From assembly GCA_036785375.1 (NCBI GenBank), contig JAWMAR010000030.1, positions 5,146,001 through 5,210,000 of the forward strand: a DNA stretch of 64,000 nucleotides, written 5' to 3'. Numbering within the stretch: position 1 is the stretch's first letter; each line of letters starts with the position of its first letter. Origin of the DNA: Leucoraja ocellata (Eukaryota). The notes under the pieces were generated by a model. It was not told the origin of the DNA, made no database searches, and worked only from the letters and a program-made list of their open reading frames with translations. This document shows positions 24,463-30,600 of this stretch, piece by piece. The translations under genes were made by a program, and so were the position numbers.

Positions 24463-24625
24463 CTAGATGTCAAGCTTTGCCATTTCCTGCACATAGATGC
24501 CAATACTTTCACTGTCGAATAAGATAAAAAAGATGTTCTTCAATGATGATGATATTGCGTTATCAAAATAATTGGCGATGGCCTTGAGGATGAGCTGCGC
24601 TGCAATGTGCTTTGGGAAACAGTTT
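24463..24625 (-). CDS. MACROH2A2: macroH2A2 copy A last coding exon ([10 protein letters not shown]...QEMAKLDI*)
   Basis: ttccag| acceptor; TAG stop immediately followed by TAA. Confidence 0.93.
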
Positions 24626-27600
24626 CTGGAAGCAAAAAAAGGATTAACCATTACTTCTAATATTGCTTCCTCACATAAGGTTAATTGTGCAAGAGGTCCA
24701 AAAGGGAAAATCTTGTAATGCTTTGCAGCTGCTCAAGTCTAGTTATTAGTGATTAAGTTAGTTTCAATGCAACATACACATTTTAGACATTGTTAGGAGA
24801 CTCCTGGCGCTTTCATGGGAAAAGTGGATAAATATTTGAAGTAGGTTATAACAATTTAAAACCAACCTCTTTCCCGTTTAATTTCCATGAAGCAGCACAA
24901 CCACAGAATGCTAAGGTTGTCCTGCACTAAATACGAGACTACATTTTTAATTCCTTAATGATTTTTTTCTTCTCACTGATACAAATTTAAACATAGTTTG
25001 GTTTAAAGATATAGGATTGGAACAGGCTCTTTGGCCCAGCGATCACCAGCTTAGTAGTTTTGTTATCTCATCCATCCACTCTTCGAAGGTCATTTTACAG
25101 TTCAATTAACCTACAAACCTGCTGGATGTGGGAGAAAACCCATGTAGTCACAGAGAGAATGTAAACTCCAGACAGTACCCAGGTCTCTGGTATTGTGACA
25201 CAGCAGCTCTACCAGCTGTAGTGTTGGTGGATACTCTCTTCCATGTTTAAATAATTTACTGCATGTTTATTCTCTTCCATACATTTCTAATACCATGCCT
25301 CCATTGAACTTTTGATGCTGTTGGCTGCTCCGAGGGTCTCTTATCCCTTGCAATTCCCACGTACAAGCCTCCTGCGTAACTGATCCAGATTAAAAAATTG
25401 AGATGAAAATGTTGTGCCATTGCTGCTTTCTTCAGTCCAGTGACAACAAAACAAATAACCAATAAATCCATCAAAATTATCAATTCCGAATTAGCAGTCT
25501 GAGTGCTTGTCTTCATACTTCACAATTGTTAACAAGAGTTCTGTTTGGTTATGAGATTCATCAAGTTGTTACCAATAAATCTTCAGTCTGAACAATGCAA
25601 GATTTGAAGAATGTTGGTAGTGACGGGTTTTTTATTCCAGTGGTAAACTTTTCTGGGAGTAACACTTACATAACAGCCCTTGTACATAACCAGACTCTAG
25701 GCCATTAAGTAATCCATCCTGAACCTGAAATAATCAAATCTGAGTGACAGTTTTGTTTCCAGGTGTGCCCAATCCAGAATAGAGGTTCAGCTCCATTACT
25801 ATGTAGAGATGCCAGAAGGTTTTGTAGAGGTAGGGAGGGTTGCTCTTCTTGTTCCATTAGATTGAGGTTTTCATTAACTACTGCAATGCACACTTGTTAG
25901 CAACAGAAGTGTATTTGGAATAGTACTGCTGATTACCTAATTTCCATGCCAACATGGTTAATCTACAACAGTGTAGTTAACAGATTCAACTCTAAAACTG
26001 CTCAGATTTTGAATTGAGGTACTGCTCATAATTCCTGTCCACTAACAAAAACTGCACAAATTAAGATTTTATAACAGGGAAATATTCATTCTTAGGCTTA
26101 ATTTCATCTGAAAATAATGTTAATGGTTACATTCATTCACATTTATTTGGTGGATCAGGGATTTTCTAACTCACGGAGATATGCCAAAGAAAAGGAAGTG
26201 GATACCAATGGTGGTGTCTTTCAAGGCACCAGCATATGTTAAAAGTGGATGATCATCATTGTAGAAGCATTTGAACATCCTACCTTGATTGGTTTGGAGA
26301 CCAACCTGAAGCTCGAGAACTGGTCCTGTCCAATGACATGAAAATCAACCCCAAAAGTCAAGAGTTTATTATTAATTTTAGGAGAACTTCAACTATTAGC
26401 TTACCTTAAACATTGAAACATCCTCCATCTTGTTTATTTTAACTACTGCAATGGTTATTGGAGTAATACCTTCCATTATTTTCCTAACTTTCTGCACAAC
26501 TGTGATGTGGCACTAATAATATTTGAATGATTTGTAACCGTAGCGTAGTTTTAATTATATTAATTTTAATTTAGCATAAGATATTCGGCCATTTCAGATG
26601 GAACAACATCAACATATTGCTTCTTCGTGCCTCCATCGTCTTACCCAGCTGTGCATAACATATTTGCAGGGAGGCTGCATTGACAATCTGGAGTCCGTTT
26701 ATGCACCCCCTTCCACTACTCAAGGACAAAACAACATTAGTCAACTTCACTGTACTCAAAATGCGGCGGGGGTGGTATGAAGCAGTTTATCTTTTACTTT
26801 GTAACCAACAATTAGGAAGCTCAACATTTTTCAAAAATCTCTTCAGTTATCCAGTAAATGCAGCCTAGATTTACAGTGCTAATGTGAAAAATTGTTTTTC
26901 TCGTAATTCTAGAGAATCTGGATTATTTAAAATTACAAATGTCCTTGTTTTATACCTGCAATATACTTGGTGCTTTCACATGTCCTTCAAATATTTACTG
27001 TTACAAAACAACCCCAGAAACGCACACAAGCTTTTGTACAATCTGTAGAACGTGTTTGATACCCATGATCCGCTTAAAGTTTTCAGATGCAATTTGATAT
27101 ATCTAAAAGCATTGTAGCACAATCTTTGATCTTCTGAGGTAACCCAACAGAAAGTGAAAGCCCCTTAAGATTTTCCCATTCTCTCAGTTCAGCCTTCAAT
27201 TCCCAATGATAGTACAGCAAATTCACAAGATACCTTGTGTCTAGTTTGAACTATTGTCTGTCAAGCTGCAAAAGTAATGTTCATTCCTGCATCATTTGCC
27301 GTTGCTTGAGAATTGCAGCAAACTAGTGAATCTCCTTAGAATAATTATTCCATGAATAAATGGTGAAGAATGAAAGATTTGATGACTTTGCATTAATTAA
27401 CGTGGTCATGTGTGATTCGTTTAAATCAAAGACTGGCTGAAAGTGTTGTTCTCTTTTTCACAACCCATTCATTTTCAGACAGTTTAAAGTAGAACGAAAG
27501 GATAACCAAGTAATAAATTGTTTTGGTCGCAATCCATGGTTTTAACATCAGTTTTCTGGCATATCTTCTCCATGGCCTCGAAAGTAAAATTACCACTCTC

Positions 27601-30600
27601 TCAGGCACTGGATGCAATTTTGGCGTCTTGATCCATTCAGTTTGCATTAATTGTAGGAGAAAGTTTAACTGTAGCTTTGGTTTCTCCCCTCTCCCCCACC
27701 CCAGAAGATCCACAGGCAAGTATTTTTTATGCATCACCAGCCGTAACAGTACTGCCAATCCTGCACCATCAGTAGCCATGGACAAAAAAGGTTGGGCTTT
27801 TTCCTGGAGGCATTAATACTGCCACAACAGATATTAATTTTAGCTTAATTAATAGCCTGAGTCAGGAGGTTGTGGGTTCAAGTCTTTCATCAGGGAAAGC
27901 ACAAAAAGTTGGCACCCCCATACACCGAGTAAAAGAAGTGCTAACATTTGCTTATTGAAGGTGAGTTCAGGGCCTGTCAGCCTTATCAAATGGTGAAAGG
28001 AACTGATGTAGCCATTTTAATGTCAAACACAGGATTATTGTCACTACTGCAGTACCTTTGTCATGCACGCTTAGAGGTTACTACTGCATAGATATTATAT
28101 ACACCCTGTGTAAAATTAACTTCACCCTTCACACATCCCGTTTATGCAGAAATAAACATCTTGCATTTAACTTAATACAAACCCGGCCAAAACAAAGCCA
28201 AATGATGGCACACAAATTTCTGTCTTATAAATGTCAGTGGAAATTTATGGTAAATATTTATTATAACCTTTCAAGTGAGCATTTACATATTTGTTTTAAA
28301 AAATCAAAACCAAAATTATTCAATTTAGACATAAAATGCATTTTACCTGCTGCTGGCAATGGACGGGAAAGCAATCGATTTTAGTTTCTTCTCATCTGCC
28401 AAAGTCAAGCAGTTCATCACAGCTTTTTCCAGATGCTCTTCACATTTATCCACTCCCCATTGTGGGATATTACAGTGAATTATGAATTTGGCCGGCAGTC
28501 CAGGAGCCTGACCCAAAACAGCTGTAATAGAAACAGAATTTAATATGTTTGGACTCAAACAGAACATAGGAATTGTTGAAATGGCTCATTTAGTACCTGT
28601 TCCTAGTAGGGCATATGACCAAATCCTGATTCGATTCTTAAATTCTGGAACCATTATAACCCTACGTGAGCATGCTCTGATCGCCATATTGAGACAGTAC
28701 AACAATAATTTCCAAGTATGGTTTTAATGGCAGCATGCTCCAAGCATCTACCACAGTGTAACAAAACAATTGCCTCCGGCATCCGCTTACCTATCCCCTT
28801 CTCACCCTCTTGTTATTGGTTTATTATTGTCACGTGCACCAAGATAGAGAACAAAACCTTTATGTACTTTCCAGGCAAATCATACCATACATGACTACAA
28901 CATGTAATGCAAAAGAAAAATGGACCACAGTGTAGAATATAGTATTATAACTAGATAAAGTGCAGGTTAAAAAAGTGCCAGGGTCACAATAAGGTAGGTG
29001 ATGAGAGTCTGATAACAGCCTTTCTTGAATCTGGTGTTCTGTACTTTAAAGCTTTTGCATCCCAGCTGCTTTCCCAATGAAACATGGTGTAAATAGTTTG
29101 CATGATATTTTGAGCTACCTCCACATCTCTGCAATTTATTGTGGTGTCTTGGGTAGTGCAGTTGCCAAAGCAATCCACTCATTAGGAAGTTTCAAAGAGG
29201 ATCTTAATTGGATTTATGTCACATCTGCTCATATATTACTGGGCAATACTAAATTTACAACCAATTTGGAACAATGTTAACCATGTGTACGTCTGCAGGC
29301 TCTCTGGTGTTGCAACTTGCACAAACAAAAACAATAAGGCACATTTATCAAATGGATAACATGCCATTGAAGACAGTGTGAAGTGTAGATGAAATCAATA
29401 GGGATGGGGTGGGGGGAGAGTGGAGATGGGAAGAGGCTGATTTGTATGATGGACTGGGCTGTGTCCACAACTGCAATTTCTTAGTCTTTTGCAAAGCAGA
29501 GCACTTCCATAAAAGCTGTGATGCATTTGATAATTTGCTTTCTACGCTGCACCTTTGAAATCGGTAATTCATTAGAGACAAGCTGAATTCCCTAGTCTTC
29601 TGAGCAAGTAAAGCTGTTGGGTAACATGCTCAAGAACCTTTTCCATATTCTTTCTATCTGAATGACATCCTTCTGATAACCAGGATTCCAGAACGGCACA
29701 CATTACTCCCAGTATGGTCTCACTCACATTTTGTAATGACGTCCCAACTCAATCTCAATATTTTGAAGGCAAGATATGAAGGCAAGTGCACCACATGGTT
29801 ACTTCTACAGCTCCACACAGCTGAATAAGTAGTAAAATATGCATTGACCATAGAACTCTTGTTGAATTGCAATTAAAATATAGATTAGAGGCATGTTGCC
29901 TTTGATATTTCTATACATTATTGCCTTGTTCTCCCACGATGACTACCGTGCAAAGAGGATATTGGGGTATAATATGAAATCGAACTAGATGAAATTTTGA
30001 AATATTTCTAAAATGAGATTGTTATTCAAAAGTGTCAATGTGTGCATGTTAATATTTCACTTGTTTTGAATGCTACAATATTATATTTCAAGCAGATTCC
30101 TCACGCATGACAAAGTACAGCATTATAAATCAAATCTCAATCAAAGCAGATAGCTATATATATGTTTTAAATTACAAATTACTACTTGCCCCCAGCTACA
30201 TCCAAAGGTCCATTGGATTTAAAGAGCTCTTTCACAGCATCTAAAAACTTCTTTCCACCTGCTTTTTCCAATGCGTTGCCTGAAATTACAATTATTATTC
30301 AGAAGATTCATAGGCTATTGGTAGATCTGCTTAAAGTGGTTAAACTGATGAATACCTAACCGGAACTCTATTTGCAAAGTTCAACATGTGGGAGGGTAGG
30401 GCATCATAATACAGATTTAATAACATCTTAAAATGAAAAAGGTAAAATAAATGCATGGGACCAGCACTTGTAAGTATACTTCAAAAAATACTTTAATGCA
30501 TCATTTACTCTTTCAAATTGGAAGATTACTTTATGCAATAATTCCCATTTAGAAACATAGAAAATAGGTGCAGGAGTAGGCCCTTCGAGCCTGCACCGCC

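Follow-up and report, generated by a model that had tools for sequence, protein, structure and literature searches.

We analyzed a 64,000-nucleotide (nt) stretch of the Leucoraja ocellata genome (contig JAWMAR010000030.1, positions 5,146,001 to 5,210,000; hereafter the window, in whose own numbering all positions are given), which contains a direct segmental duplication carrying two genes for the histone variant macroH2A. The part at 21531 to 31078 matches 49754 to 64000 in blocks of 81 to 94% identity (gaps included), the second side running off the end of the window. In each half there is one macroH2A gene, encoded on the minus strand. The window contains the whole of copy A, with eight coding exons, canonical acceptors, and an open frame of 382 amino acids (aa); its donors are all GT except for a GC donor at exon 7, which copy B has as well. 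Copy B is present in the window by its last exons only, and what is known of its exons 2 to 6 comes solely from the proteins of two relatives, the skates Leucoraja erinacea and Amblyraja radiata.

On the minus strand, copy A may begin with a noncoding exon 1 or promoter in a CpG-rich stretch at 42860 to 43130 (splice donor near 42890, RNA depth below 1.5 in the bin). The first coding exon (37701 to 37872) encodes the N-terminal half of the histone fold and is marked by S11I, I13, M28L, M29L, K38N, V47I, and I53M, and exon 3 (37420 to 37526), the core of the fold, has no amino acid difference from copy B. Exon 4 (35544 to 35774) holds the docking domain, with S102C, and the basic linker, where copy A has two in-frame gains of 9-nt repeats over copy B. 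These are the only coding indels, and they fall in a lysine-rich repeat at 35640 to 35665, which has gained one unit in all A copies and one further unit in the window relative to the A copy of L. erinacea. Exon 5 (33929 to 34039) covers the end of the linker and the first macrodomain strand, with L194H. Exon 6 (32877 to 32976; N214K, V218A) aligns without gaps to the structures 6FY5 and 1ZR5 and appears to be of the macroH2A2/1.2 type, which is described as not binding ADP-ribose. Exon 7, with the GC donor, lies at 30190 to 30279 (E248K, R257F) and is skipped in some annotated copy A isoforms; exon 8 follows at 28347 to 28521 (Q297H, T301A), and the last exon, exon 9, at 24463 to 24625 (S343A, T350I, V360I, and a terminal lysine turned into a stop). 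The examined part of the 3' untranslated region (3'UTR), at 23900 to 24462, differs from that of copy B by ~7%.

Copy B exon 7 lies at 63602 to 63691 and carries the B-derived A252G, exon 8 at 60131 to 60305, and the last exon at 55735 to 55900 (55738 to 55900 were compared with copy A), with the ancestral terminal lysine and TAA. Both copies have a 42-nt alternative micro-exon in intron 8 (26284 to 26325 in A, 57644 to 57685 in B; all copy B exons on the minus strand), and in copy A it differs from B by one R-to-W change and one silent change. Its 14 aa insert in a macrodomain loop; annotation has it as isoform X1 throughout chondrichthyans, Callorhinchus among them, and it is well used in RNA. 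The Pfam families Histone, Histone_H2A_C, and Macro all score above cut-off in an orthologue of copy A, which thus has the macroH2A architecture, and a search of the window with Rfam gave no matches. Residues E54, E59, E62, D88, E89, and E90, which we take to be the acidic patch of macroH2A, are invariant in a 25-sequence alignment.

Both copies are annotated in RefSeq as "macro-H2A.2-like" for L. erinacea and A. radiata, on one contig per species. The copy A orthologues, XP_055517757.1 (L. erinacea) and XP_032868459.1 (A. radiata), come from automatic annotation only, and the copy A protein of the window equals that of L. erinacea except for one 3-residue repeat. Among the matches listed, Rhinoraja longicauda and other chondrichthyans have one macro-H2A.2 cluster set each, a single-copy status judged from protein listings rather than genome searches. 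In a 21-protein tree that included macroH2A1, copies A and B are sisters (100/96) within a chondrichthyan macroH2A2 clade (100/99), and across genera A pairs with A and B with B. A tree with B held beside Rhinoraja was rejected (p-AU 0.008). By this grouping and this rejection, the duplication is younger than the divergence from Rhinoraja and older than that of Leucoraja and Amblyraja, and copy A is a tandem duplicate of macroH2A2 in rajid skates. A false duplication made by the assembly was rejected, because two other species also have both copies on one contig, and the copies form one clade of A sequences and one of B sequences. The part of PMC8303890 available to us gives the topology of the skate tribes and offers no usable ages for dating. 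Several macroH2A2 changes on the skate stem before the duplication are common to A and B (stem 0.029), and the branch of Rhinoraja macroH2A2 is long as well (0.031); macroH2A2 in skates may thus have been accelerating already before it was duplicated.

A first-pass annotation, made from the sequence by itself, had counted nine codons with amino acid or stop changes and three silent changes between the copies in exons 7 to 9. That count is exact, with 14 of 428 nt differing in 12 codons, and so is the list of changes (A/B: K/E, A/G, F/R by TTT versus CGG, H/Q, A/T, A/S, I/T, I/V, and stop/K), although the micro-exon, a fourth shared exon in the same interval, had been missed. The estimate that about seven of the nine were derived in copy A was, if anything, cautious: 16 chondrichthyan outgroup proteins place eight on A and one (A252G) on B, so the copy A residues are, at eight of the nine codons, not the ancestral ones (binomial p = 0.039 for 8:1, p = 0.07 for 7:1 without the stop). 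The changes are mostly nonsynonymous in number, as had been noted, but not beyond neutrality. By the Nei-Gojobori method, 333.5 nonsynonymous and 89.5 synonymous sites give dN 0.029 and dS 0.042, a ratio of 0.68 (Fisher p = 0.49), and the raw excess of replacements is therefore what site counts near neutrality lead one to expect.

The asymmetry extends over the whole gene. Taking as fixed those differences that consistently set the three A sequences apart from the two B sequences, and polarizing them by Rhinoraja, we found 20 A-derived against 5 B-derived columns in the whole protein, with 2 unresolved (p = 0.004), or 19 against 5 with the insertion counted once; the histone fold accounts for 6 of the A-derived columns and none of the B-derived. 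The stem of copy A carries 17 fixed substitutions, one insertion, and one terminal loss. Copy B, which had been said to keep the ancestral state, is near-ancestral in exons 7 to 9 but not wholly so, given its five fixed derived residues. The A and B stems measure 0.064 and 0.010 substitutions per site on a fixed species tree and 0.054 and 0.013 on the 21-protein tree, and branch A thus stands clearly above background. By domain, the A and B stems are 0.064 and 0 for the histone fold, 0.121 and 0 for the linker (whose boundary was set at 198, so that it takes in the first macrodomain strand), and 0.041 and 0.016 for the macrodomain; for the histone fold, single tip branches of the 16 outgroups reach 0.026 at most. 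What had been described as a divergence of the macrodomain therefore spans the gene, and its strength per site in the histone fold is no less than in the macrodomain. For the Leucoraja pair, a three-sequence rate test was significant with all 16 outgroups. Most changes of copy A predate the split of Leucoraja and Amblyraja; after it, the branches are near equal (0.010 for A, 0.012 for B in the 21-protein tree), and the two genera differ by five residues in each copy. The contrast of stem with tips is suggestive of an acceleration that was early and is not ongoing (Fisher p = 0.08 to 0.12).

Some of the copy A changes hit positions that do not vary in any of the 16 chondrichthyan outgroups, including M28, M29, V47, I53, S102, L194, E248, R257, T301, and S343. 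By predicted structure, the histone-fold changes fall in helix 25 to 33 (M28L, M29L), in helix 47 to 70 (V47I, I53M), and in the docking region (S102C), and those of the macrodomain in helices 246 to 260 (E248K, R257F), 294 to 311, and 331 to 348; the underlying AlphaFold model is of low confidence (mean pLDDT 51) and was used solely to place secondary structure. K38N, found in the Leucoraja lineage only, is in the loop after helix 25 to 33, and we infer from sequence that residue 38 lies in the L1 loop. In the part of PMC3510494 seen here, the L1 loop and docking domain are tied to macroH2A nucleosome stability and targeting. For the most part, copy A has undergone conservative replacements, and these are dispersed through all three domains.

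As a neutral yardstick, we used the noncoding divergence between the copies, split evenly between the branches by assumption. This divergence is 4.8% overall, 6.1% outside two low tracts, and 6.7% in the 3' flank. Against it, copy A evolved at 0.75 to 1.04 of the neutral proxy in exons 7 to 9 and at about 0.78 to 1.08 gene-wide, and copy B at about 0.1 and 0.2 to 0.3, respectively; the replacement share in exons 7 to 9 is thus above the norm of this gene, to judge from B. A dN/dS significantly above 1 was found neither pairwise nor with these proxies. The first low tract, next to the micro-exon (26400 to 27900), differs by 1.0% between copies (14 of 1,414 columns) against 6.1% elsewhere, and the second (28522 to 29100) by 5 of 568 columns. 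The lowest 1,500-column window has 17 differences, compared with at least 41 in 1,000 permutations. The tracts would reflect either gene conversion or strong constraint on conserved noncoding sequence. Adjacent changes also cluster at 30221 to 30223 and at 24465 to 24466, where one silent change joins the stop, and each cluster may be a single multi-base mutation. The two clusters and the two tracts make a naive selection test less trustworthy.

Near-neutral as its average rate is, copy A is not drifting freely. Disabling hits (frameshift, internal stop, or broken splice site) should number about seven, yet copy A has none (P about 0.001); the frame is open in three skates, and the splice sites are intact. 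Its changes also avoid conserved positions, as scored in 99 bony-vertebrate homologues kept by length from 109. Of 17 changes in the folded domains, one falls at a site at least 99% conserved, although 40% of the sites in these domains qualify (p = 0.002), and the depletion holds at thresholds of 95% (p = 0.0006) and 90% (p = 0.019). Codons at tolerant positions evolved at 0.85 to 2.0 of the yardstick, or 1.1 to 2.0 for pairwise distances of 0.048 to 0.067, with significance in 1 of 12 settings.

For transcription, we turned to RNA from a close relative (tissue not given, unstranded libraries), mapped on the copy A region. The coding introns are spliced, including the one with the GC donor and those around the micro-exon. 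At the last-exon joints, two runs give 148 versus 312 and 326 versus 541 reads; the reads are mostly of B type. Of 20 candidate diagnostic sites in the 3'UTR, 18 were checked and 16 used, since those at 23958 and 23964 proved not to be diagnostic. At these 16 sites the A letter makes up a median of 18% of reads (13.5 to 31%) in run X23 and 9% (4.5 to 21%) in run X24, with 32 to 77 reads per site versus a depth of about 1.5 to 12 in nearby intronic bins. Because mapping on copy A favors A, these shares are upper bounds. In the assembly of run X2, the A-type contig has a depth of 23.5 versus 331.5 for B. The 40 read differences inspected, of 2,137, include none in coding exons; single-cell run X21 has at most 22 reads at any exon site; and proteins from RNA assemblies (Logan) fall into B-type clusters, with none in either of the A-type clusters.

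RefSeq lists A-specific isoforms in both genera, including ones that skip exon 7 (363 aa in Leucoraja, 349 aa in Amblyraja), and such skipping is not seen for B or the outgroups among the clusters listed. The skip removes 30 aa of the macrodomain and lowers the Pfam Macro score from 97 to 62 bits; exon 7 holds the two most radical macrodomain changes of copy A. These isoforms lend indirect support to spliced A transcripts. Lack of transcription, which would have marked a dying gene for the first-pass annotation, was therefore not what we found, the evidence consisting of the relative's 3'UTR reads and the RefSeq isoforms only. Copy B has a proximal AATAAA (55204 to 55218) that is missing from the matching place in A (about 23970). 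The closest signals of copy A on the minus strand lie at 23500 and 23420, and its 3'UTR is therefore probably longer.

A convergent gene lies downstream of copy A, with 3' exons at 4400 to 21487 on the plus strand. Two of these match the Pfam family TPR_28 ("GBF1-like") below the curated cut-off, and the gene is called GBF1-like here. Its transcript is an unlikely source of the A-type 3'UTR reads, given four plus-strand AATAAA signals at 22026 to 23221. An ATTAAA at 24448 leaves that source some probability, and with unstranded libraries and a convergent neighbor the 3'UTR evidence is not airtight. The duplicated block starts about 45 nt past the GBF1-like stop codon, so the 3'UTR of this gene was copied too.

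The surroundings also contain mobile-element remnants. About 3 kb at 52130 to 55178 is found in the 3' flank of copy B only, with similar 240-nt stretches near its ends (52376 to 52613 and 54892 to 55118) and gag-like open frames that have no Pfam matches; it is possibly the remnant of an element with long terminal repeats. Remnants of Tc1-like DDE transposons with inverted ends and a fragment of a Pao retrotransposon lie at 16530 to 17700, 31050 to 32420, and 48839 to 49237.

The first-pass annotation had proposed relaxed or positive selection on copy A. The A branch is indeed far above background, but the data do not separate the two. We lean, with no great confidence, toward an early and partial relaxation of copy A as a weakly expressed spare, with B keeping the main job. 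Copy A would have become the low-dose copy, and B would have supplied most of the protein. Changes at those positions of A that are tolerant or moderately conserved would then have become close to neutral and reached fixation at roughly the neutral rate, and nonsense, frameshift, and core-breaking alleles would still have been removed, as is to be expected if A is still made and enters nucleosomes, in a small dose or in a restricted tissue. What results would be a histone of the macroH2A2 type whose fold surface, linker, and macrodomain helix are slightly altered.

It is important to point out that several observations weigh against this relaxation. The rate test for the Amblyraja pair is significant with 6 of 16 outgroups only; Amblyraja B has more private changes. 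The yardstick is noncoding DNA, evenly split by assumption and distorted by the 1%-divergence tracts, and tolerant codons above 1 are more than pure relaxation allows. The expression evidence for A comes from a related species, an unstated tissue, unstranded libraries, and the 3'UTR only, and run X2 yields one contig per splice joint, at B-type depth. Finally, the apparent return of A to B-like rates once the genera had parted is explained no less well by an adaptive episode.

Such an episode, in which positive selection made copy A a new tissue-restricted macroH2A variant (in the germ line, for example) that is now conserved there, is a possibility we consider real but on the whole unlikely. 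It would explain why so many stem changes were fixed on a short branch, some of them at positions invariant in every outgroup, before A slowed to the same five intergeneric differences as B. Tolerant codons reaching twice the neutral proxy and exon-7-skipping isoforms for A in two genera point the same way, and the portion of bioRxiv 10.1101/165936 available to us describes young germline histone variants under positive selection as a known pattern. However, no test is robustly above neutrality, and the contrast of stem with tips falls short of significance. R257F (three adjacent bases) and the stop (two adjacent bases) may each have arisen as one multi-base mutation and so give a false look of selection, and the changes are mostly conservative and spread over three domains rather than one surface. 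The stronger form of the proposal, that rajids evolved a third, functionally distinct macroH2A through a short burst over the fold, linker, and macrodomain helix, with its own exon-7-skipping isoform and restricted to a tissue or the germ line, we regard as somewhat more doubtful still.

It is quite improbable that copy A is an incipient pseudogene, drifting freely and not yet disabled. An average rate near neutral, minority expression, a stop that arose at the last codon, and an exon skip that costs part of the macrodomain would suit such a gene. A lesion and a neutral spread of changes would be its marks, and we found instead that disabling mutations are absent, that changes are depleted at invariant sites at all three thresholds, and that both coding indels keep the frame. 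Slightly less probable again is a mutational artefact (faster local mutation in A, clustered multi-base mutation, or patchy gene conversion under unchanged selection). The two low tracts, the two clusters of adjacent changes, and silent and intronic changes of no assigned polarity leave some room for it. Against it, amino acid divergence near the noncoding rate requires weakened selection whichever copy mutates faster, given a histone-fold B stem of 0 and very short branches in the 16 outgroups, and false duplication by the assembly is excluded.

Copy A shares the H2A fold, basic linker, and macrodomain of vertebrate macroH2A2 (H2AFY2; PDB 6FY5 and 2XD7) and of its chondrichthyan orthologues, among which it is nested and to which it is 85 to 90% identical. 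It differs from macroH2A2 as a second tandem copy in which about 19 derived changes are fixed, a good number of them where the residue is invariant elsewhere, with a C terminus one residue shorter and a linker that is longer and slightly more basic (net charge +30/+31 versus +28/+29). macroH2A is counted among the well-conserved histone variants, and two macroH2A genes are described for vertebrates in the part of PMC3510494 seen here. Young duplicates are often asymmetric, one copy accelerating early and being less expressed and the other staying conserved. Skate macroH2A2 follows this pattern, and the unusual part is the identity of the gene, a histone variant. The consulted part of bioRxiv 10.1101/165936 describes macroH2A as under strong purifying selection. 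The mammalian short H2A variants treated there (H2A.B, L, P, and Q) are also young and accelerated, with gene conversion between copies, but they are X-linked, testis-specific, and far more diverged, with H2A.P under positive selection. Skate copy A, in contrast, has diverged by about 8% with an intact histone core, and tissue bias and positive selection are hypothetical for it. A literature search over titles and the opening lines of abstracts, mostly of open papers, returned no account of this duplicate or its divergence.

Taken together, we observe a real and apparently undescribed duplicate, annotated automatically, that follows a common evolutionary pattern. In it, helix 1, loop L1, the docking domain, and one macrodomain helix would be the parts of macroH2A2 that can be released, and the exon 3 core and the acidic residues the parts that stay fixed. 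If relaxation is all that happened, the locus is a clean example of how duplicates evolve asymmetrically, though an ordinary one. If the burst was real, nature would in effect have mutagenized residues that are fixed in all other jawed vertebrates, and if copy A is both adaptive and tissue-restricted, rajid skates would offer a histone variant caught early in its birth, with A and B directly comparable in the little skate.

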